A DNA stretch of 64,000 nucleotides from an uncultured bacterium (GTDB taxonomy: Bacteria > Krumholzibacteriota > Krumholzibacteriia > JACNKJ01), in assembly GCA_963695095.1 (NCBI GenBank), contig CAVOFT010000001.1, forward strand, positions 1,024,001-1,088,000, written 5' to 3'. The notes beneath the pieces are model-generated. The model saw only the letters and a list, made by a program, of their open reading frames with translations, was not told the origin of the DNA and ran no database searches. Position numbers and translations under genes: made by a program. Shown piece by piece: positions 32,728 to 48,042 of this stretch. Each line of letters starts with the position of its first letter. Within the stretch, counting starts at the first letter, position 1.

Positions 32728-33186
32728 TTGACAATTAGTCGGCGGGGCTGGGGCTGGATCCTCGTCCAGCTGGCGATCTTCGCGTTGATCCTGTGGGCGC
32801 CGTCGAGCGGGCGGACGCGCTTTCCCGGCCCGATCCGCTGGCTGGGGCCGCTCCTGATCCTCAGCGGCGCCTGGCTGGGCGCGGGCGGCCTGCTGGCGCT
32901 GGGCCCCGCCCTCAGCATCTTCCCCGAGCCGCGCGCCGGCGGCCGCCTGACCGCGGCGGGGGTCTACACGCGGGTTCGGCACCCGATGTACGGTGGTTTG
33001 GTGCTGGGATCGCTGGGCCTGGCCCTCTGGCGGGGCAGCCTGATCGGCGTGGGGCTGGCCCTCGCGCTCCTGCTCTTCTTCGATCGCAAGTCGCGCCACG
33101 AGGAGCGGCGGCTCGAAGCCCGCTTCCCCAGCTACGCCGACTACCGGCGACAGGTGGGGAAGCGGCTCCTGCCCTGGATCTACTAG
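32728..33186 (+). CDS. isoprenylcysteine carboxylmethyltransferase/PEMT-family membrane protein
   Basis: GVYTRVRHPMYGG, EERRLEARFPSY; TTG start inferred. Confidence 0.82.
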   Translation: MTISRRGWGWILVQLAIFALILWAPSSGRTRFPGPIRWLGPLLILSGAWLGAGGLLALGPALSIFPEPRAGGRLTAAGVYTRVRHPMYGGLVLGSLGLALWRGSLIGVGLALALLLFFDRKSRHEERRLEARFPSYADYRRQVGKRLLPWIY

Positions 33187-33746
33187 CTCTGCTTGCCGGG
33201 CTTCGCCTTGCTCCCTGCGGCCGGCTGCTTGGCCTCGGCCTCGGCCGCGGCAATCAGGCCCTCGATCTTCGCCTTGAGCTGCGGCACGCCACGGGGGTCG
33301 AAGCCGACGGCGCTATGGGCGACCTTGCCATCCGGGCCGATCACGAAGGCGCTGGGGATGCTCTGCACGCCGAAGCGCGTGGCCACCTTGCCGCCCTCGT
33401 CAAAGACCGAGGGGAAGCCCGCCTGCTGCGCCTCCAAGAACTTGAGGCCGTCGGCGGCCTTGCGGTCCAGGCTCACGGCCAGCACGCGGAAGGGGCGGCC
33501 CTTGTACTCCTTGTGCAGGGCCTGCACCTCGGGGAAGGAGCGCCGGCAGGGTCCGCACCAGCTCGCCCAGAAGTCGAGGTAGACGACCTGCCCGCGCAGT
33601 TCCGAAAGGGTGTAGGTCTCCTTGCCGTCCAGGCTGCTGAGCGTGAAGTCGGGCGCCTGCTCGCCGACGGGCGTGAGCGCGAGCGCCGGCTGCGCCAGAC
33701 CGAGAGTCATGGCGAGGAGAGCGAGGCTGAGGAGGGTCTGCTTCAT
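33183..33746 (-). CDS. TlpA-family thiol-disulfide oxidoreductase
   Basis: signal peptide, APDFTL, DFWASWCGPC. Confidence 0.9.
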   Translation of the reverse strand: MKQTLLSLALLAMTLGLAQPALALTPVGEQAPDFTLSSLDGKETYTLSELRGQVVYLDFWASWCGPCRRSFPEVQALHKEYKGRPFRVLAVSLDRKAADGLKFLEAQQAGFPSVFDEGGKVATRFGVQSIPSAFVIGPDGKVAHSAVGFDPRGVPQLKAKIEGLIAAAEAEAKQPAAGSKAKPGKQS

Positions 33747-33782
33747 CGGCGGGAGCTCCTTGGGTGTCGTGAGGTGCCGGCG

Positions 33783-34271
33783 CTACTCATTGTCGCGGGT
33801 GGCGCCGATCTCGGTCTGGGGGTTCTCTGCGGTTGCAAGGTCCGTGCTCGCGTTCAGCACGTAATGATGCTCGATGGGCACGCTCGGTTTCAACATCGCA
33901 CCCACCGAGCAGTAGCGCTCGTGGCTGAGGGCGATGGCCTTCTCGAGCTGCCGGGCCTTGACGTCGCCGCGCACGTGGACGGTCAAGTCCACCTTCGTGA
34001 AGACGCGCGGCGGCTCGGGCGCCCGCTGGGCCCTGGCCTCGATGCGGAAATCCACCACGCGGGCCCGCATCTTCTCCAGCATGCCGAGCACGTCCATCGC
34101 CATGCAGCCGGCCAGGCCGGCCAGCACGAGCTCCACGGGCGAGGGTGCGGCGCCGTGGCCGCCGCCGGCCGGCGAGGTGTCCATGCTCAGCCAGTGGCCG
34201 CTGCCGCTGCGGGCGGCCAGGCTGAGGCCGTCCATGCGGACGAGGTCGATGCTCAAGCTGTCGTTCGCCAT
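33783..34271 (-). CDS. OsmC/YhfA family protein
   Basis: PSPVELVLAGLAGC..MDV, LSHERYCSV. Confidence 0.88.
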   Translation of the reverse strand: MANDSLSIDLVRMDGLSLAARSGSGHWLSMDTSPAGGGHGAAPSPVELVLAGLAGCMAMDVLGMLEKMRARVVDFRIEARAQRAPEPPRVFTKVDLTVHVRGDVKARQLEKAIALSHERYCSVGAMLKPSVPIEHHYVLNASTDLATAENPQTEIGATRDNE

Positions 34272-34308
34272 GTGGCTTCCTTTCCGGGACCGGGCTGCCG
34301 AGGCCGGG

Positions 34309-35346
34309 CTAGAGCAGGGCTTCCAGCTTGGCCAGCAGCGCGGGCTTCGGCATGGCGCCCACGATGCGGTCGGCCAGCTCGCCGTTCTTGAAGACCAGCA
34401 GGGTGGGGATCGACCGGATGTCGTACTCCGCCGGCACCTGCTGGTTCGCCTCGGTATCCAGCTTGCCGAAGACCATGCGGCCCGCCTGCTCGGCGGCCAG
34501 GGCCTCGACGATGGGCCCCACCATGCGGCAGGGGCCGCACCATTCGGCCCAGCAGTCCACGACGAGGAAGGGGTACTTCGCGACCGCGGCGGCGAAGTTC
34601 TCGTCGGTGATGACCAGGGGGGTGCTCGGGTCGTCGCCGAGCTTCATCTGCTCGGCGGCGCGGGCGGCGGCCGCCGCGAGCACGGCATCGGCGTCGCTGG
34701 CGCCGTAGCGCAGCACCTGGTCCACGAAGCTCTGCTCGGGCTGCCGGCCGAGCGTGCTGCTCGCCGGATCCTCGTTGATCACCTGCTGGGGGACGCTGCT
34801 TACCTGGAAGCGCTGGGCCAGTTCCATGTTCTCGGCGGCGCTGACGGCCACCGAGCGCACGCGGCCCTTGGCCTCGATGGCGATCTTGTGGTTCTGCAGC
34901 ACCGAGCCCGGGCAGTGGGGGCAGGTGGGGGTGACGAAGGAGTAGAGGAGCACGTCCTTGTCCAGGGCGGCCAGCTTGGCCTGGCTGTCGGGCGTCAGCT
35001 CGGAAGCGCCGCTGCCGATCAAGCCCAGGGTCTCGACCAGGGCGCCCGCCTCGTGACCGGTGGGGGCGCCGTGCACCTCGATGGCGTAGCCGAGCTCGGC
35101 GCCGAGCACGAGGCTGGGCGAGACGAGGCCGCGGGCGCGCTCGCTCTCGCCGAGGGTCCGCTCGCTCAACTCGATGCGGTCGCTGAGGGCCGCCAGTTCG
35201 CGCACGAACTGGCGCGTGAAGTCCACGGCCTCGGCATTCTCCTGGCCGGCGTAGAGCGTGATGTCCACGCTGCTCTGCAGGCGCTGGCCGAAGAAGTCGC
35301 GCAGGTTCTGTTCGGTCTGCTCGTCGATGAGCGGGGCGGCGTTCAT
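34309..35346 (-). CDS. fusion of AhpF-N-terminal/PDO-like domain and thioredoxin
   Basis: GAPTGHE, FVTPTCPHCP, VSSVP; C-terminal WAEWCGPC...IRSIPTLL. Confidence 0.85.
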   Translation of the reverse strand: MNAAPLIDEQTEQNLRDFFGQRLQSSVDITLYAGQENAEAVDFTRQFVRELAALSDRIELSERTLGESERARGLVSPSLVLGAELGYAIEVHGAPTGHEAGALVETLGLIGSGASELTPDSQAKLAALDKDVLLYSFVTPTCPHCPGSVLQNHKIAIEAKGRVRSVAVSAAENMELAQRFQVSSVPQQVINEDPASSTLGRQPEQSFVDQVLRYGASDADAVLAAAAARAAEQMKLGDDPSTPLVITDENFAAAVAKYPFLVVDCWAEWCGPCRMVGPIVEALAAEQAGRMVFGKLDTEANQQVPAEYDIRSIPTLLVFKNGELADRIVGAMPKPALLAKLEALL

Positions 35347-35390
35347 GGTGCCTCCAGGGGCGGCGCGCTGGCGCCTGCCAAGCGTTCGGG

Positions 35391-35657
35391 TCAGGACTGG
35401 GTCTCGAGGGTGGCCAGGAGCGGGCTCACCAGGGGCTCGTTGAGCTGGTAGCAGAGGGTCTGCCCCTGCCGGCTCACGCTCACCAGCCCGCAGTCGCGCA
35501 GCACGCGCAGATGCTGGCTGACGTTGGACTGCCGGAGATCGAGCTGCCTCTCGATCTCGCCGACACAGCAGCCGCTGCGGGCGAGGAGGTCGAGGATGCG
35601 CAGGCGGGTGGGATGCCCCATCGCCCTGAGTCGCGCACTGGCCAGATCGAAGTCCAC
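35391..35657 (-). CDS. ArsR/SmtB family transcriptional regulator
   Basis: AMGHPTRLRIL, CCVGEI, QSNVSQHLRVLR; GTG start inferred. Confidence 0.9.
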   Translation of the reverse strand: MDFDLASARLRAMGHPTRLRILDLLARSGCCVGEIERQLDLRQSNVSQHLRVLRDCGLVSVSRQGQTLCYQLNEPLVSPLLATLETQS

Positions 35658-35682
35658 GCTGCCCTGCTCCCGTCTGTATGAG

Positions 35683-35733
35683 ATCATTCGCATATGCGCA
35701 TGGAATGATATACAGCCCGGGGCCACCTGTCAA
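35683..35733 (-). promoter_or_regulatory. sigma70 promoter overlapped by candidate ArsR operator
   Basis: minus-strand TTGACA-N17-TATCAT (35733-35705); inverted repeat ATCATTC-N13-GAATGAT (35683-35709). Confidence 0.65.
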
Positions 35734-39149: not shown

Positions 39150-40470
39150 ATGAGCATGAGTCCGCGCACGATCCAGCCCGCCAAGGGCAAGCTGGGGGTT
39201 CTCACGCCCGGCATGGGCGCCGTCGCCACCACCTTCTACGCCGGCGTCGAGCTGGCCAGGCAGGGCCTGGGCAAGCCCTTCGGCAGCCTGACGCAGATGG
39301 CCCACATCCGCCTGGGCAAGCGCACCGAGGATCGCAGCCCCATGATCAAGGACTTCGTGCCGCTGGTGCCCATGACCGACCTGGTCTTCGGCGGCTGGGA
39401 CATCTTCCCCGACAACGCCTACGAGGCGGCCATGAAGGCCGGCGTGCTGCCCGCCGAGCAGCTCGAACGCGGTGAAGGGCTTCCTCAGCGGCATCAAGCC
39501 GATGCCGGCCGTCTTCGACCAGAAGTGGGTGAAGAAGATCGACGGCCCGAACAAGAAGAAGGGCGCCAACTGGATGGAGCTGGCCGAGCAGCTCCGCGCG
39601 GACATCCGCAACTTCAAGAAGGCGAACGGCTGCGACCGGCTGGTGATGGTCTGGTGCGCGAGCACCGAGATCTTCCTCAAGGCGGGCGCCGGCGCACGAG
39701 AGCATCGCGAGTCTGGAGAAGGCCATGCAGGAGAACGATCCCTCGATCGCGCCGAGCATGGTCTACGCCTACGCGGCGATCATGGAGGGCGTGCCCTTCG
39801 CCAACGGCGCGCCCAACCTCACCGTCGACTATCCCGGCGATGGTGGAGCTGGCCCGCCGCGAGGGCGTGCCCATCGGCGGCAAGGACTTCAAGACCGGCC
39901 AGACCCTGATGAAGACCATCCTCGCGCCCGGCTTCAAGGCGCGCATGCTGGGCATCAGCGGCTGGTTCTCGCACGAACATCCTGGGCAATCGCGACGGCG
40001 AGGTGCTCGACGATCCCGAGTCCTTCAAGACGAAGGAGGAGAGCAAGCTCTCCGTGCTCGACACGATCCTGCAGCCCAAGCTCTACCCCGATCTCTACGG
40101 CAAGCTCTACCACAAGGTGCGGATCAACTACTATCCGCCGCGGGGGGACAACAAGGAGGGCTGGGACAACATCGACATCTTCGGCTGGATGGGCAACCCG
40201 ATGCAGATCAAGGTGGACTTCCTCTGCCGCGACTCCATCCTCGCCGCGCCCATCGTGCTCGACCTCGCGCTCTTCATGGACCTGGCCAAGCGCGCCGGCA
40301 TGAGGGGCATCCAGGAGTGGCTGAGCTTCTACTTCAAGAGCCCGCAGGCGGCCGCGGGGCTCTACCCCGAGCACGATCTGTTCATCCAGCTCATGAAGCT
40401 GAAGAACAACCTGCGCCACCTGATGGGCGAGGACCTGATCACCCACCTGGGCACCGAGTACTACGACTAG
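39150..40470 (+). CDS. ino1: myo-inositol-1-phosphate synthase (about four frameshifts)
   Basis: GMGAVATT, FGGWD, WCASTE, FANGAPN, GKDFKTGQT, NILGNRDG, RGDNKEGWD, CRDSILAAP distributed over three frames. Confidence 0.9.
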
Positions 40471-40499: not shown

Positions 40500-40530
40500 A
40501 GGGCCTCGGGGGACAGTCCCCGGGGCCTTT
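40500..40530 (+). terminator. intrinsic terminator-like hairpin after ino1
   Basis: AGGGCCTCGGGG-GACAGT-CCCCGGGGCCTTT. Confidence 0.55.
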
Positions 40531-40596
40531 GTCGTTCGGCGCCGGCCGGCCTCGCCGGCCTTGACGACGGACGGCGGCGCTCGCTAACCTGTTCGC

Positions 40597-41718
40597 ATGA
40601 TCCATCGCTCGCGCCTGCTCTGCGCGCTGGCCGCGCTACTCCCGCTCCTGGCTGCTCCGCCCGGCCACGGCGCCGAGGAGCCGCCTCGCATCGTCTTCGC
40701 CGAGACCGCCCACGATTTCGGCGAGGTCGAGGAGGGCGTGGAGCTGCAGCAGCGCTTCCGCTTCCGCAACGCCGGCGGGGGCATCCTCGAGGCCAGGGGC
40801 GGCTGAGCCTGCTCGGCCGTGCTGGTCAGCGCGGTGGACGATCCGGCGAGCGGCGGCGAGTGGATCCAGGGGCCGGTGCGTCTCGGCCCCCGCGAGGAGG
40901 GCGAGGCCCTGGTCACGCTGAAGCCCCTCGGCTTCGGCCGCTGGTCCAAGGTGGTCACCGTGGCCAGCAACGACCTCAGCCGGCCAAAGGCCCGACTCAC
41001 CTTTTCCGCCACGATTCGCAGCCGCTTCGCCGTCGAGCCCCGTGTGCTCCAGCTCGACCGGCTGCCGGCCGACAGCGACACCGTGCTCGTCGTGGCGATC
41101 ACTCCCCGCCATCCGGAGGGCTTTCGCATCCTCGGTGTCGAGGTCAATCCGCCGCCCGTGCCGGACCCGCTGGGGGAGGATGTCCGGCGCGAGCCGGCTC
41201 AGGCACGGGGCGGCGCACCCTTCACTGTTGCCCTGCGGCCGCCCGCAGTCGCCGCGCCGGAGAGCATGGACGCGCGCTGGCTGCTCGAGATCCGACTGGC
41301 GCCCGCTGCGCAGCCGGGACGGCTCAACGAGCGCATCCGCGTGATGACCAGCGACCCGGTCGTGCCGGATATCGAGCTTGCCGTCCTGGGCGAGCTGACA
41401 GGTGCGCTGGGCTTCCCGGAGCGCCTGGAGATCGCCGGCCGCTTCGCCGGCGTGCCCGCCAGCGGCACCCTGCCCATCCGCCGCCTGAGCGGGCCGCCCT
41501 TTCGGATTCTCAGCGCCACCGCCAACGACGTCCACTTGCGTATCGCCGTCGTGACGCTCACGCAGGGCGAGGCCTACGACATCGAGATCACCGTGCTGCC
41601 GGACATGCCCAGGGGGCGCCACAGCTGCCTGCTGCTCGTCGAGACCGATCGACCGGATCAACGGCAGATCAGCATTCCGCTGCTGGTGCGCCTGGGCCGC
41701 GAGAATCAGGGCGATTGA
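40597..41718 (+). CDS. DUF1573-like secreted Ig-fold protein, probable selenoprotein (TGA 40804-40806 read as Sec)
   Basis: ORFs 40597..40806 and 40819..41718 share one frame; HDFGEV...FRFRNAG...GG-U-ACS matches the family's CxC position; hairpin 40817-40834. Confidence 0.72.
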
Positions 41719-41822: not shown

Positions 41823-44540
41823 ATGACCCACCAGCGCTGCGCCGCGTTCACCCTGCTCTTGCTGCTGCTCGCGCCACCAGTCGCCCACGCGGCCGACAAC
41901 AGCAACTGGGGGAGCGGCTTCCACCCGCCCGGCGTCCGCGACGGCAATTTCCCGGGCACGGTCAACGCCGTGGCTGCCAACAACGGTCAGGTCTACATCG
42001 GGGGCAGCTTCAGCGAAGTCGGTGCCGTCGAGGCGCGCAACGTGGCGCGCTGGGACGGCCATCACTGGCACGCCATGGGCACCGGCATCGGCGGGGATGT
42101 GATCTCGCTCTACGCCGCCGAGACGGCCGTCTTCGCCTCGGGCTGGTTCAGCGAGGCCGGCGGCGAGCCCGCGCTCTTCGTCGCCCGCTGGGACGGCGCT
42201 GACTGGCATCGCATGGGCGGCTCGGACTTCAACGGCATCGTCAACGGCTTCGCCTACTACAACGGCGGCCTCTACGCCTGTGGCCGCTTCAGCGAGTACG
42301 GCGGCAGCACGATGCCCCTGGTCGCCCACTGGGCAGGCTCCGACTGGGAACGGCTCAGCGGCGGCAACCTGACCTGCTACCACTGCTATCCCGCCGAGGT
42401 CATCGCGCTGGCGGCCTGGGACGGCAAGCTCTGGGCGGGCGGCCGCTTCGACTACGTCAATCCCTGGGACCTGAACGGCCTGGCCTACTGGACGCAGAAT
42501 GACGGCTGGCAGAGCGTGGATGGGGATCTGGGCGTCAGCGGCGGCGACGATGCCATCAGCTGCTTCGAGGCCCACAACTACAGCCTCTACTTCGGCGGCC
42601 CCTTCGCCTTCATCGGCTTCGACCCCTGCCAGGGCTTCGGCTATGTCTTCGGCGGCACCCTGCACACGATTGCCGGCCTTGACCCCTGGAACTACTGGGT
42701 CACCGACCTGCTCGAGTACAACGCGGCGCTCTACGTGGTCAGCGAGGAGTGGATCCGGCCCTGGCTGGGCGTGGGGGGCTGGGGCGAGGAGCTGGGCGAA
42801 CTGGACGGCGCCTTCGCCGCCACCACCGAGCATGGCGACCTCTACGCCGGCGGCACGCTCTTCTACGGCAACACCCACATCGACGGCCTCGCCCGCTGGG
42901 ATGGAGACGGCTGGCGCCGCGTGGGAGAGGGACTCGGCTTCAGCGCCAACAACTCCGATCAGGGCCGCTGCCTGCTGAGCTGGGAGGGTGACCTGTTCAT
43001 GGGCGGCTACCAGACCGGCGTCAGGGGCATCGGCGATGATGTCACCCACTGCGCCAATGTCGGCCTCTTCAACGGCGACGACTGGTTGCCCCTGGCCGGC
43101 GGCTTCGTCGACGCCGTCGAGGACGCCATCATCTACGACGGCCAGCTCCACGTTTGCGGAGCCTTCGATCACGAGGCCTATGGCGGCAACAGCATCTATC
43201 GCCTCGCCCGCTGGGACGGCGCCGCCTGGCAGCCGCTGGCGACGGGACTCAATCCGGGTACCTTCGTCGGCCATGCCTATGCGATGACCCTCTGGCAGGG
43301 CGACCTCATCGTGGGCGGCAACTTCGAGTCGGCCGGCGGCCTGGCCGTCGACAATCTCGCCCGCTGGAACGGAACGGCCTTCAGCGCCGTGGATGACGCG
43401 CTCTTCAGCGGCGAAGTGCGCGCCCTCTGCGTCTACGCGGGCGACCTGATCGTGGGGGGCACCTTCGTGAGCCTCGATGGCCAGGCCGTCGGGCGCATCG
43501 CGCGCTGGGACGGCGCGGCCTGGGACTTCCTCGACGGCGGCATGGGCGACGGCGTCGTCGAAGTGCTCGAGGTCTGGCAGGGTCAGCTCATCGCCGGCGG
43601 CAGCTTCACGACGGCCGGCGGGGTGCCGGCGGCCCGGATCGCGCGCTGGGACGGCAGCGCCTGGCAGGCTCTGGATGCGGGCCTGGGTGGCGCGGACTTC
43701 GTTACCACGGTTCGGGCGCTTCAGCCCAGCGACATCGGCCTCTTCGTCGGCGGTCGCTTCGAGACCGCGGGCGGCCAGCCGGCGGCGAACATCGCGCGCT
43801 GGCAGGCGGGCGGCTGGGAGCCCCTCGGCGACGGCGTCACCGAGGGCTATCTGGGGCAGACCGTCGTGGACGACTTCTGCATCCACGATGGCCAGCTCTA
43901 CCTGACCGGTGACTTCCTCTACGCCGGCGGCCATCTGTCCGCGAACATCGCCCACTGGCGCGAGGCTCTGACGCCGGTGACGCTACTGCGCTTCGATCTC
44001 ATCGCGGAGCCGGGTTCGGTACGGGCGAACTGGGAATTGGCCGAGGGGGAGGGTCCGGTGGAACAGCGCCTGGAGGCGGCGCGGGGGGGAGAGGTCTGGC
44101 AGCCGGCCATCGAGCCCCTGGGCGGCGGCAGTTTCCAGGCTTGCGATCTGGCTGCGCCGCTGGCCGCCGGCGGCAGCTTCAACTACCGGCTCAGCATCCG
44201 CGAGAGCGGGGGCGACTGGCAGCTCCTGCGCCAGGTGGCTGTCCAGGTCCCCCCCCTGACCCCCACGCAGCCTACCCTCGCCGCCTGGCCGAATCCAGGC
44301 GCCGCCATCTTCACGATCCAGGCCAGCCTGCCGGCGCCGGGCGCCGCCGAGCTTGCGGTCTTCGACGTCGGCGGCAGACGCCTGGCCACACTCCATCGTG
44401 GACGGCAGAGCGAGCGGAGCCTGCAGCTGACCTGGGATGGACGGGACGATGGGGGCCGGCCGCTGCCCGCGGGCGTGTACCTGCTGCGCCTGCGCACTGC
44501 AACCGGCCAGGCCAGCCAGCGCTTGGCCCTCCTGCGCTGA
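41823..44540 (+). CDS. large secreted repeat (beta-propeller) protein with FlgD-Ig/T9SS-like C-terminal domain
   Basis: GGAGG RBS, signal peptide, many 'VGG.F..AGG....IARWDG..W' repeats, C-terminal AWPNP...WDGRDD.G..LPAGVYLLRL. Confidence 0.85.
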   Translation: MTHQRCAAFTLLLLLLAPPVAHAADNSNWGSGFHPPGVRDGNFPGTVNAVAANNGQVYIGGSFSEVGAVEARNVARWDGHHWHAMGTGIGGDVISLYAAETAVFASGWFSEAGGEPALFVARWDGADWHRMGGSDFNGIVNGFAYYNGGLYACGRFSEYGGSTMPLVAHWAGSDWERLSGGNLTCYHCYPAEVIALAAWDGKLWAGGRFDYVNPWDLNGLAYWTQNDGWQSVDGDLGVSGGDDAISCFEAHNYSLYFGGPFAFIGFDPCQGFGYVFGGTLHTIAGLDPWNYWVTDLLEYNAALYVVSEEWIRPWLGVGGWGEELGELDGAFAATTEHGDLYAGGTLFYGNTHIDGLARWDGDGWRRVGEGLGFSANNSDQGRCLLSWEGDLFMGGYQTGVRGIGDDVTHCANVGLFNGDDWLPLAGGFVDAVEDAIIYDGQLHVCGAFDHEAYGGNSIYRLARWDGAAWQPLATGLNPGTFVGHAYAMTLWQGDLIVGGNFESAGGLAVDNLARWNGTAFSAVDDALFSGEVRALCVYAGDLIVGGTFVSLDGQAVGRIARWDGAAWDFLDGGMGDGVVEVLEVWQGQLIAGGSFTTAGGVPAARIARWDGSAWQALDAGLGGADFVTTVRALQPSDIGLFVGGRFETAGGQPAANIARWQAGGWEPLGDGVTEGYLGQTVVDDFCIHDGQLYLTGDFLYAGGHLSANIAHWREALTPVTLLRFDLIAEPGSVRANWELAEGEGPVEQRLEAARGGEVWQPAIEPLGGGSFQACDLAAPLAAGGSFNYRLSIRESGGDWQLLRQVAVQVPPLTPTQPTLAAWPNPGAAIFTIQASLPAPGAAELAVFDVGGRRLATLHRGRQSERSLQLTWDGRDDGGRPLPAGVYLLRLRTATGQASQRLALLR

Positions 44541-45120: not shown

Positions 45121-45152
45121 ACCCCCGGCCCGCGAAGAGCCGGGGGTCTCTT
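45121..45152 (+). terminator. intrinsic terminator-like hairpin
   Basis: ACCCCCGGC...GCCGGGGGT followed by CTCTT. Confidence 0.6.
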
Positions 45153-45318
45153 GCAATCTCGCCCCCGTCCGTCCAGGACAACGGCACCCGAATTAGCGAT
45201 TAGCCGCTCTTTCCCCTTGTTTGCCTGGCCTTGTGGCGATCTCTGTGCTATGCTGCGGTTCTGCTATTCGTATCCTTGTCTACGCCTGTTCTTGCAGGTA
45301 ATCAACGGGAGGACCCCC

Positions 45319-45705
45319 ATGTTCAGAGTTGCGATAATGTTGTCATGCTTGTTCCTGCTGCCGATCGTCGCAACGGCGGCCACCTTCGTGATCGATCAGA
45401 CCGGCACGGCCTGGGTGCCCGCCGACATCACCATCGTCGTCGGCGACACGGTGGAGTGGCACTGGAGCAGCCTGACCCACACGGTGACCAGCGGCACGGG
45501 CGCCGCCGATCCCAATGCCGGATCGCTCTTCGATGCGCCTCTGGATGCGGGCAATCCCCTGTTCAGCTACACCTTCACCGTCGTCGGCGACGTGCCCTTC
45601 TTCTGCCGGCCCCACGAGGGCGTGGGCATGACGGGCGTGATCCACGTGGACGACGCGACGGCCACCGACGACTCGGCCTGGGGCAACATCAAGGCCCTGT
45701 ACTAG
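45319..45705 (+). CDS. plastocyanin/cupredoxin-family copper protein with C-terminal ...SAWGNIKALY tail
   Basis: signal peptide; GDTVEW, HTVT, C-RP-H-EGVG-M type-1 copper ligands. Confidence 0.85.
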   Translation: MFRVAIMLSCLFLLPIVATAATFVIDQTGTAWVPADITIVVGDTVEWHWSSLTHTVTSGTGAADPNAGSLFDAPLDAGNPLFSYTFTVVGDVPFFCRPHEGVGMTGVIHVDDATATDDSAWGNIKALY

Positions 45706-45732
45706 GACGCGGTGAACTGACCTGATGGCTCT

Positions 45733-45760
45733 GGCCCCGGCCGCCGGCCGGGGCCTTTTT
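45733..45760 (+). terminator. intrinsic terminator
   Basis: GGCCCCGGCC-GCC-GGCCGGGGCC followed by TTTTT. Confidence 0.75.
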
Positions 45761-45814
45761 CGTGCGCCGCGCGCGGATCGCGGCTACACTGCAGGCGACC
45801 CGCGGAGGTCTGCG

Positions 45815-46561
45815 ATGCCTGTCCGCCCGCTCTGCCTGGCCCTGCTGCTCCTCCTGCCCGCCCTGCCTCGGCCTCTGGCGGCGGCACCGCCCGAAGCCGT
45901 GGCGGCGGATCCCTACGAGGGGATCCGCCTGGAGATGGTCCGGCGGCAAATCGAGGCCCGGGGCGTCAAGGACCCGGCGGTCCTGGCGGCCCTGCGCCGC
46001 GTGCCCCGTCACCGCTTCGTTCCTGCGGCCATGGTCGGAGAAGCCTACGCCGACCATCCGCTGGCCATCGGCGAAGGCCAGACGATCTCCCAGCCCTACA
46101 TCGTGGGGCTGATGACGGAATTGCTGCAGGTCTCGCCCGGGCAGCGCGTCCTCGAGATCGGCACGGGCTCCGGCTACCAGGCAGCCGTGCTCGCCGAACT
46201 CGGCGCCGAAGTCTACAGCATCGAGATCGTGGAGACCCTCGGCCGGCAGGCGGCGGCTCGGCTCGCGGTTCTCGGCTACGAGCGCATCCAGCTGCGCATC
46301 GGCGACGGCTATCGCGGCTGGCCGGAGCGGGGCCCCTTTGCGGGCATCCTCGTCACGGCGGCCCCGGACCACATCCCACGCCCGCTGCTCGATCAGCTTG
46401 CTCCCGGCGGTCGCCTGGTGATTCCGGTGGGAGAGGACCTGCAGCAACTCGAGGTGCATCGCCGCCGACCCGAAGACGGCCCCGAGGGGCCGGTCTTCGA
46501 GCGCGAGATCGTGCTGCCGGTGCGCTTCGTGCCCATGACCGGCGAGGCTGAGCGCCGCTGA
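45815..46561 (+). CDS. pcm: protein-L-isoaspartate O-methyltransferase
   Basis: VPRHRFV, GQTISQPYIV, VLEIGTGSGYQAAVL, PVRFVPM; signal-peptide-like N-terminus. Confidence 0.93.
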   Translation: MPVRPLCLALLLLLPALPRPLAAAPPEAVAADPYEGIRLEMVRRQIEARGVKDPAVLAALRRVPRHRFVPAAMVGEAYADHPLAIGEGQTISQPYIVGLMTELLQVSPGQRVLEIGTGSGYQAAVLAELGAEVYSIEIVETLGRQAAARLAVLGYERIQLRIGDGYRGWPERGPFAGILVTAAPDHIPRPLLDQLAPGGRLVIPVGEDLQQLEVHRRRPEDGPEGPVFEREIVLPVRFVPMTGEAERR

Positions 46562-46701: not shown

Positions 46702-48042
46702 ATGCGATGGATACTCGGCGCGCTCCTGCTGAGCGCGACTCTCAGCGCTGTTGCTGCGGCCCAGCCGGCGGGTGACGCAGCCCTGGGCACGCGGGACTAC
46801 GACGACTACGAGCGTCCGGAGACCTGCGCGACCTGTCACGGCGACTTCTACCAGCAGTGGCGCCAGGCCATGATGTCCCAGGCCTACACGCATCACTGGG
46901 ACGAGATCGAGTACTTCGCGCTTGCGGTGCCGCACGCCGAGATCGACGAGAAGGTGGCCGACGTCAAGGCCGGCTGCAATGGCTGTCACGCTCCCATCGC
47001 CTTCCTCGCCGGCGATGTGCCGCCGCCGCGCCCAGAAGCGGGCTCCCGCGCCAACGAGTCGGTGTCCTGCGATCTCTGCCACAGCCTGCGCGGCTTCAGT
47101 GGCGATACGCCCTACAACTTCAACTGGATCACCGAGCCGGGCCCGGTGAAGGTCGGGCGCAAGGGCGGCGTCGATTCGCCCCACCACGAGTCCGTGCAGT
47201 CGGACTTCATCAGCCAGGCCGAATTCTGCGGCACTTGTCACAACGAGATGAGTCCCTACGGCGTCTGGGTCAAGTCCACCCAGCTCGAGTGGAAGGCCGG
47301 CCCCTATGCCGCCGAGGGGGTGCGCTGCCACAACTGCCACATGCCGCGCGCGGAGGGCCTGAGCGCCGACATGGGCGAGCCCGGCCTCGTGGCGCAGCAC
47401 CTCTTCCACGGCGCCCACGATGCGGGCAAGCTGGCCGGCGCCGTCGAGATGCGGGTGCATCCCGATGAGCGGGAGCAGCCCCTGGACGGCAGCGTCGTCT
47501 TCACCGTTCAGCTCTTCAATGCGAAGGCCGGGCACAAGATCCCCACGGGCTCGGTGGAGGACCGCATCGTCTGGTTGCACGTGACCGCGCGCGACGCGGA
47601 GGGCAAGACCTATCACCTGCCGGTGGACGCCAAGGGCTTCGCGGGCGAGGAGTACACGATCGCCGCCGACGTGCTCGCCTATCAGGACATGGGCATTCCC
47701 CTCGGCAAACCTGACTTCGCCGGCGTGCAGCGGGACGGCGTGCCCTTCGGGGACCGCATCTTCCGCATGCCCTACTTCGATTCCCAGGGCCGCATGACCA
47801 TCATGCAGTGGAACACGGCCTCCCTGGGCGTGGACTATCGGCTCGGACCCCGCGAGACCAAGCTCGAGACCTTCACCTGGGAGCTGCCGGAGGACATCGC
47901 CCTCGGCCGCGTCGAGATCCTCGCCGAGCTGAACTACCAGAAGCTCGTCGCGCCGGTGGCGGCCTTCCTCGATGTGCCCGCCGATGAGGCGGAGCTTGTA
48001 CCCATCAATCGCGCCAGCACCTGGATCGAGGTCTACGACTAG
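46702..48042 (+). CDS. periplasmic multiheme c-type cytochrome (5 CxxCH)
   Basis: CATCH, CNGCH, CDLCH, CGTCH, CHNCH; GHKIPTG; signal peptide. Confidence 0.88.

Follow-up and report, generated by a model that had tools for sequence, protein, structure and literature searches.

Proteins in which selenocysteine (Sec, U) takes the place of a cysteine in a DUF1573 domain belong to an already known predicted selenoprotein family, filed as OS_HP2, as DUF1573 'UGC' and as NF041425; the family is not new. OS_HP2 is listed in Table 2 of Zhang & Gladyshev 2007 (Nucleic Acids Res, PMC1976440) with two selenoproteins, from Olavius symbionts, and the legend of the figure on selenocysteine insertion sequence (SECIS) elements in that paper covers five other families, not OS_HP2. 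Tables in two reviews (PMC9312934 and PMC13188914), both of which cite Zhang & Gladyshev 2007, give the DUF1573 family as 'UGC'. Full-text searches of the literature on DUF1573, with or without 'selenoprotein' as a second term, yielded no functional study, judged by title and abstract, of either the Sec or the Cys form. Here we describe a gene at positions 40597-41718 (+) of a 64,000-nucleotide (nt) stretch of DNA from an uncultured bacterium of the Krumholzibacteriota (contig CAVOFT010000001.1, positions 1,024,001 to 1,088,000; this whole stretch is called the window below). A TGA codon stands within the reading frame of this gene, in a DUF1573 domain.

The explanation that best accounts for the locus is that the gene encodes a 373-residue exported selenoprotein with Sec at residue 70 (Sec70) of a DUF1573 domain with an immunoglobulin (Ig)-like fold; we put the probability of this reading as a whole at about 0.9. 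That the gene is a genuine Sec-decoding gene appears very likely from the comparisons described below.

Relation to the OS_HP2 family

Sequence comparison strongly supports placing the gene in a divergent clade related to OS_HP2, which we call clade A. Like OS_HP2, it has predicted Sec in place of the first Cys in the C-x-C motif of the domain, a leader followed by three Ig-like domains (334-380 residues in all) and a putative SECIS with a GGUC-type loop inside the coding sequence (CDS). However, the motif is U-A-C in clade A (C-S-C in a Cys orthologue) where OS_HP2 has U-G-C or C-G-C, with U and C in the same columns. Compared with the main branch of OS_HP2, clade A lacks three residues before the motif and has up to about 14 inserted after it. 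Furthermore, the distance from the U of UGA to the start of the hairpin loop is 20 nt in this gene and 42 nt in the main branch, and the TPR-TlpA-like neighbour that is adjacent in the main branch is not adjacent in clade A.

These differences are accompanied by low scores against the curated model. NF041425 (OS_HP2_seleno) was the only NCBIfam match to the protein, at 31.2 bits over residues 35-140, and its cut-off is 100. Scores of 29-45 bits were obtained for the Cys orthologue and the other four Sec forms of clade A; main-branch members scored 77-111 bits, and two of the 14 that were scanned pass the cut-off. As the score of our gene lies far under the cut-off, it is filed as a divergent relative and not as a member of the model. 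The Cys-form DUF1573 proteins of Bacteroidota and other phyla (PF07610) share the layout H-D-F-G ... N-x-G ... C-x-C with the gene described here. In those proteins the Cys codon is TGT or TGC, the motif is mostly C-G-C and the architectures vary, whereas the first Cys is predicted to be replaced by Sec in ours.

The in-frame UGA and its gene

An earlier sequence-only reading of this DNA had taken two open reading frames (ORFs) to be one continuous frame parted only by TGA 40804-40806. Reading the frame from ATG 40597 confirms this. The TGA at residue 70, in the context ...ILEARGG-U-ACSAVLVS..., is the sole internal stop, and it is there that an ORF listing breaks the gene into 40597-40806 (69 residues) and 40819-41718 (299 residues, GTG start). 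The G+C content at third codon positions (GC3) is coding-like on both flanks of the TGA, at 0.94 and 0.96. The features assigned to the gene, some of them predicted, are as follows.

40597-41718 (+): predicted selenoprotein CDS, with ATG at 40597, 373 codons and a terminal TGA at 41716-41718
40597-40671 (+): N-terminal signal-peptide-like segment, residues 1-25, with a basic start, a hydrophobic core and G-H-G before A-E-E
40684-41016 (+): Ig-like domain 1 (DUF1573), residues 30-140, bearing the predicted Sec-Ala-Cys; placed from Pfam, NF041425 and model strands 32-141
40804-40806 (+): UGA predicted to be read as Sec, residue 70, from TGA or Cys at this column in orthologues and from the Sec machinery of the genome
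40810-40812 (+): TGC codon of Cys72, the partner of Sec70 in the U-x-C motif, invariant in 15 of 15 aligned sequences
40816-40835 (+): SECIS-like hairpin, from its fold, scans and synonymous-site identity; encodes residues 74-79, A-V-L-V-S-A
41026-41400 (+): Ig-like domain 2, residues 144-268, from model strands, with a Pro/Ala-rich low-confidence loop at about 185-208
41425-41694 (+): Ig-like domain 3, residues 277-366, from model strands with a predicted local distance difference test score (pLDDT) above 90; its T350-D motif is conserved

The TGA is shared by relatives of the gene. A protein search of 41 related genomes gave matches in 16, and 13 loci, each from a different genome, had TGA at the same motif (GGUAC in four, GTUGC in one, PGUGC in eight). 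The four genomes with GGUAC are the source genome, two of the same genus and one of another genus. GGUAC with TGA is also present in a metagenome locus (L033) that is 75% identical to the gene; a second metagenome locus (L034) is the same sequence as L007. Among loci drawn from the whole class, TGA was seen in 24 of 26 motif matches. In an alignment of 15 sequences (A1), made up of 12 genes read through the TGA and three Cys forms, the columns of U70 and C72 are invariant, and the TGA falls at a single column in all 12 of the read-through genes.

Where relatives lack the TGA, Cys is seen at its position. The orthologue P0003 (375 residues, 73% identical, 99% coverage) reads G-G-C-S-C-S, with Cys at the Sec column, and, as far as the protein alone shows, also differs in the residues at the place of the hairpin. 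The genome's own paralogue (C1:1557683-1558702) likewise has Cys at the Sec position, in S-C-S-C-T. The claim that DUF1573 domains carry C-x-C at this place holds as well: among 28 DUF1573-like domains in loci L024-L041, the first motif position is Cys in 26, mostly within C-G-C, although the pattern that caught them itself requires [U/C]-x-[U/C] and the count therefore shows which residue occurs, not that the motif is always present. TGA-bearing domains in the same set of loci are those of L033, L034 and L040. Homologues aligned over the TGA column (the 13 TGA loci, P0003, the paralogue and the DUF1573 domains) thus carry Cys or Sec there, a point on which the sequence-only reading had turned.

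The genome that holds the window (3.64 Mb, two contigs) encodes the machinery that Sec insertion would need. The search for selA, selB, selC and selD that the same reading had called for detected SelA (357.6 bits), a SelB-type winged-helix domain (40.2 bits), SelD (342.4 bits; G000:C1:69142-70107, -) and a tRNA-Sec with anticodon tca. SelA was found in 12 of the 12 genomes of the same taxonomic family.

Pfam places domain 1 across the TGA. PF07610 (DUF1573) matches residues 32-138 with 29.6 bits (cut-off 26.1), which makes the protein a member of that family, and PF22544 (HYDIN/VesB-like Ig) matches with 30.6 bits (cut-off 25.5); together, the Pfam matches cover residues 30-138. An AlphaFold2 model built from a 15-row alignment has three beta-sandwich domains (residues 32-141, 144-268 and 277-366), with a mean pLDDT of 84.7 and a predicted template modelling score (pTM) of 0.67. 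In this model, domain 1 is built from both sides of residue 70 and the U-A-C motif lies between strands 64-68 and 75-79; pLDDT drops to 51-65 over residues 191-210 of domain 2. Searched by sequence, the PDB contains no match to the protein at E <=1. A Foldseek search of the same database returned generic tandem-Ig arrays only, the best being ciliary central apparatus proteins (E of 2e-16 and weaker), and gave no functional lead. The likeness to these ASH/HYDIN/PapD-like arrays is one of fold only, with 9-15% identity and TM-scores of 0.2-0.33 (whole multi-domain chains compared), and they are eukaryotic structural proteins without a Sec/Cys-x-Cys site, unlike the product of our gene.

The leader and its cleavage site were judged by eye from the sequence, and a comparable hydrophobic leader starts all 13 of the Sec-form relatives. 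From the leader, the product is probably exported from the cytoplasm. The description of the product as an exported multi-Ig selenoprotein, already offered in the sequence-only reading, is therefore supported by the leader-like segment, the three Ig-like domains, the Sec machinery, the conserved Cys/Sec column and the hairpin.

The three-domain family is widespread in the class: a profile of 15 sequences found it in 184 of 208 genomes (E <=1e-10). Each of the 44 best-scoring places has exactly one in-frame TGA, a ranking that arises partly by construction as the profile consists mostly of Sec forms.

The hairpin downstream of the UGA

In the fdhF-type SECIS of Escherichia coli, a hairpin lies directly 3' of the UGA within the CDS and has a G at the start of its apical loop. 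A stem CCGTGCT/AGCGCGG with a GGTC loop, 11 nt past the TGA, had been noted here before, and it was found letter for letter at 40817-40834. CCGTGCT (40817-40823) and AGCGCGG (40828-40834) form a 7-bp stem around the loop GGTC (40824-40827), and a G40816-T40835 wobble lengthens the stem to 8 bp, two of which are G-U pairs. The loop has what we take to be the same four letters as the loop of E. coli fdhF; there is no sequence similarity outside the loop, and binding of SelB to the hairpin described here is putative.

Hairpins of this type are scarce in the genome at such positions. The genome has 131 hairpins with a GGUC tetraloop and a stem of at least 6 bp, counting both strands, and by our own arithmetic a given site would have one of them 15-45 nt after it with a probability of about 6e-4. 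Six of the 131 lie 15-45 nt after an in-frame TGA with an open frame on both sides. Only two of these six have coding-like GC3 on both flanks, namely the gene described here and a gene for a Sec-peroxiredoxin, and the same two were the ones with a GGUC hairpin when the list was widened to 47 TGA sites whose flanks are open and coding-like.

The Sec-peroxiredoxin gene lies outside the window (G000:C1:2730891-2731814, -). Its product matches AhpC/TSA with 127 bits, and the TGA stands at the peroxidatic Cys, in F-T-F-V-U-P-T-E. As in our gene, the loop of its GGUC tetraloop hairpin begins 20 nt after the U of an in-frame UGA. However, its product belongs to the unrelated AhpC/TSA family and is of cytoplasmic type, and its stem has 6 bp before a bulge, compared with 8 bp here. 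We take the peroxiredoxin hairpin as an internal positive control for what the SelB of this organism presumably reads.

The hairpin is letter-identical in five clade-A orthologues whose proteins are 41-75% identical. Within these five, 77 columns have an invariant degenerate residue, and the codon is invariant in 24 of them. Where the residue is four-fold or more degenerate, the codon is invariant in 6 of 6 columns within the hairpin (residues 74-79) compared with 8 of 52 elsewhere. Under a hypergeometric distribution, 6 of 6 would arise with a probability of about 7e-5 (our own arithmetic), and a run of at least six invariant codons occurred in 681 of 200,000 shuffles; as the five sequences are related, both figures are indicative only. 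These data support the view that the hairpin is conserved beyond what coding requires.

Main-branch genes have a hairpin of similar type at their longer distance. It has a U-GGUC-A or GGGU-containing loop about 42 nt after the U of UGA, and the hairpin encodes P-P-G-Q-E-G (P-G-Q at the loop), in another reading frame than the L-V-S encoded in gene 40597-41718. In 24 main-branch sequences (22 distinct), 93.9% of cells pair, compared with 31-59% when the partner strand is slid. One pair is C-G in 15 sequences and U-A in 6, another shows one U-A to G-U change, and the covariation score was above those of all 500 shuffles. A second possible helix in these mRNAs (columns 14-18 with 30-34) has good pairing, little variation and no conserved loop G; the GGUC/GGGU hairpin at columns 36-53 is taken as the probable main-branch SECIS, with this helix as a less likely alternative. 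One loop used in two frames and at two distances would be hard to explain by protein coding alone.

In-frame TGAs also occur at two further places in the genome. In selD itself, which lies outside the window, the TGA stands in A-G-G-U-S-A-K, and the hairpin downstream of it has a GGA loop. Outside the window, at G000:C1:2603228 (-), a TGA between coding-like flanks (…N-Y-P-G-G-*-C-L-G-L-A-P…) precedes an 8-bp hairpin whose GUC loop begins 24 nt after the U; this may be a further selenoprotein gene.

Neighbouring genes, alternative explanations and function

In the main branch, the selenoprotein gene is followed, after 30-119 nt and on the same strand, by a gene whose product combines TPR repeats with a TlpA-like AhpC/TSA-Redoxin domain bearing the motif W-C-x-P-C and has a leader or lipoprotein signal of its own. 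By that motif, the partner is present in 16 of 21 loci (those, out of 30 fetched, in which the pattern caught the Sec-form gene). Pfam confirmed it in five loci in one scan and five in another, with several genes appearing in both scans. It should be noted that this operon is our own observation and not a published definition. A structure-based complex prediction for a Cys paralogue and its TPR-TlpA-like neighbour in genome G015 scored under the mark and is evidence neither way.

Other arrangements accompany the Cys forms. The source genome's Cys paralogue (C1:1557683-1558702, +) encodes 339 residues with C-S-C and a DUF1573 match of 60 bits. It is followed, within C1:1557683-1559640 (L073, 1468-3427), by a gene for a rhodanese-domain protein, whose start overlaps the paralogue stop, and a gene for a MauE/DoxX membrane protein. 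Locus L079 (G015:C2:431300-436300, -) has a Sec form ending at 3374, a Cys form at 2335-3354 and a TPR-TlpA-like gene at 1244-2284, in tandem. The same tandem pair of Sec form and Cys paralogue is seen in L017, from another genus of the same family.

The gene directly downstream of ours, 41823-44540 (+), encodes a secreted-looking protein of 905 residues with beta-propeller repeats (Rax2, DUF5122) and a C-terminal FlgD_ig domain; in loci L009 and L033, the next gene is HU-like. Further downstream in the window are genes for a cupredoxin of the plastocyanin/azurin family at 45151-45705 (+), a protein-L-isoaspartate methyltransferase at 45725-46561 (+) and a multihaem cytochrome c at 46702-48042 (+). 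A thiol-redox cluster occupies 33183-35733 (-), with genes for a TlpA-like protein (33183-33746), an OsmC-like protein (33783-34271) and a protein with two thioredoxin domains (34309-35733). The first of these, an AhpC/TSA-Redoxin protein, is the best match in the genome to the main-branch TlpA-like partner.

Upstream, a myo-inositol-1-phosphate synthase gene spans 39150-40470 (+) over at least three frames, with Pfam pieces of NAD_binding_5 and Inos-1-P_synth at 39150-39470 and 40003-40470 and others between them. This looks like the result of assembly indel errors or a broken gene. Between it and the selenoprotein gene, at 40500-40537 (+), lies a terminator-like G+C-rich hairpin followed by a T-rich run; its single Rfam match is weak and is to the terminator part of a leader model. 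The position of this hairpin suggests that the selenoprotein gene has its own transcript start.

Several observations weigh against the proposed selenoprotein or its function. The fold energy of the whole region is unremarkable for a sequence of 69% G+C (z = 0.41), which is why the hairpin was tested by other means. Scanning 40500-41100 against Rfam at E <=10 gave no SECIS family; the three weak matches that it did give were put down to chance or to the terminator-like hairpin. Being identical, the five clade-A hairpins offer no compensatory changes, and their support comes from synonymous-site invariance only. Frameshift lesions elsewhere in the assembly mean that its base quality is imperfect. 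Reads of the source sample are absent: six DNA sequencing runs match the locus, each with a share of <=0.13, and no RNA run is listed. Two short contigs from other samples (X1 record 1 and X3 record 10) span 40804-40806 with no listed difference, but the site is <=20 letters from the contig ends, where differences go unlisted. The literature searches found no measurement of selenium incorporation into any family member. As for function, no TPR-TlpA-like gene is adjacent to gene 40597-41718 or to its counterparts in L009 and L033, the nearest TlpA-like gene of the window (33183-33746) is about 7 kb off on the other strand, and gene neighbourhood cannot part redox chemistry from metal handling.

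With lesions in the adjoining synthase gene and with source reads absent, one might ascribe the TGA to a nonsense mutation or to an error in base calling, the gene being a pseudogene or one with a true Cys or Trp codon. We consider this very unlikely because the TGA is conserved in independent assemblies (the 13 genomes, the extra metagenome contig and 24 of the 26 class-wide motif matches) and the hairpin is constrained at synonymous sites; moreover, GC3 remains coding-like on both sides of the codon. Translation could instead end at the TGA, leaving a 69-residue peptide and a separate 299-residue protein that starts at GTG 40819, a possible start codon. Nine of the ten closest database homologues are indeed deposited as truncated proteins of about 255-310 residues that start past the TGA. 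However, the 299-residue form would be leaderless and would start inside a beta-sandwich, the Pfam matches run across the TGA, the 69 codons before it are both conserved and coding-like in every orthologue, and the full-length Cys orthologue P0003 has both parts in one protein, so that two products are extremely improbable. Hardly more credible is read-through of the UGA without Sec, by near-cognate insertion of Trp, Cys or Arg or under a reassigned code, for which nothing specific speaks beyond its being a formal possibility for any conserved in-frame UGA. TGA is the commonest stop in the genome and terminates 422 of 871 long coding-like ORFs, gene 40597-41718 included, and the code is therefore not reassigned; in addition, the genome has a full Sec pathway, homologues have Cys, which commonly corresponds to Sec, at the aligned position, and the hairpin matches that of the Sec-peroxiredoxin.

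A different question is what the site does, as the gene could encode a selenoprotein whose Sec-x-Cys binds or passes on a soft metal (Cu(I), Hg(II) or Zn), with the TlpA-like neighbour only keeping the ligands reduced. CxC motifs bind metals in several proteins, and TlpA-type reductases prepare the Cys ligands of copper chaperones. The cupredoxin and multihaem cytochrome genes lie a few kb downstream in the window, and the review tables list metal-related families from the 2007 survey, namely MerT, YHS, a CopZ-like family and a putative mercuric reductase (PMC9312934, PMC13188914). On the other hand, no metal-transport or resistance gene is adjacent among the loci examined, and domain 1 offers only two invariant candidate ligands, U70 and C72, as His39 and Asp40 of H-D-F-G vary. 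The neighbours that recur belong to the thiol-redox families Redoxin, rhodanese and MauE. A metal site is possible but unlikely. With recurrent TlpA-like, rhodanese and MauE neighbours, and with U70 and C72 as the only invariant reactive residues of domain 1, a redox role is favoured over a soft-metal site; given a genuine Sec-decoding gene, we regard the chances that the Sec70/Cys72 site is redox-active as about even.

In the mechanism that we propose for the selenoprotein, UGA 40804-40806 would be decoded as Sec at residue 70, and the hairpin in the coding sequence, with its GGUC loop 20 nt past the U, would direct SelB with Sec-tRNA(Sec) to the UGA. The product would consist of three tandem Ig-like beta-sandwich domains, the first being a DUF1573 domain in which Sec70-Ala-Cys72 replaces Cys-x-Cys, and the N-terminal leader would carry it out of the cytoplasm. 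There, Sec70 and Cys72 may undergo exchange with thiols or disulfides as a redox-active selenenylsulfide/selenol-thiol pair, or may hold a soft metal. In the main branch, the TPR-TlpA-like protein with a thioredoxin fold that is encoded downstream would be the likely electron partner.

More tentatively, and with considerable doubt, we suggest that the DUF1573 Ig domain with Sec/Cys-x-Cys could be the catalytic or relay module of an extracytoplasmic selenol/thiol pathway that lacks a thioredoxin fold of its own. In most of the class this module would be recycled by a co-transcribed TPR-TlpA-like reductase, and clade A would have lost the linkage, changed the motif to U-A-C and moved the SECIS. 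If true, these three changes would point to an altered partner or substrate in clade A.

For annotation, the analysis would replace proteins now on record with about 255-310 residues and no leader by a probably secreted selenoprotein of about 373 residues. As the curated NF041425 model misses the clade, automated pipelines will keep overlooking such genes. The locus also offers a natural example of one putative SelB-binding loop, U-GGUC-A, placed in differing frames and at differing distances within one family, and this difference in placement would be useful to refine models of bacterial SECIS elements. Finally, the conserved pairing with a TlpA-like gene in the main branch would give a direct experimental handle on the function of the family.

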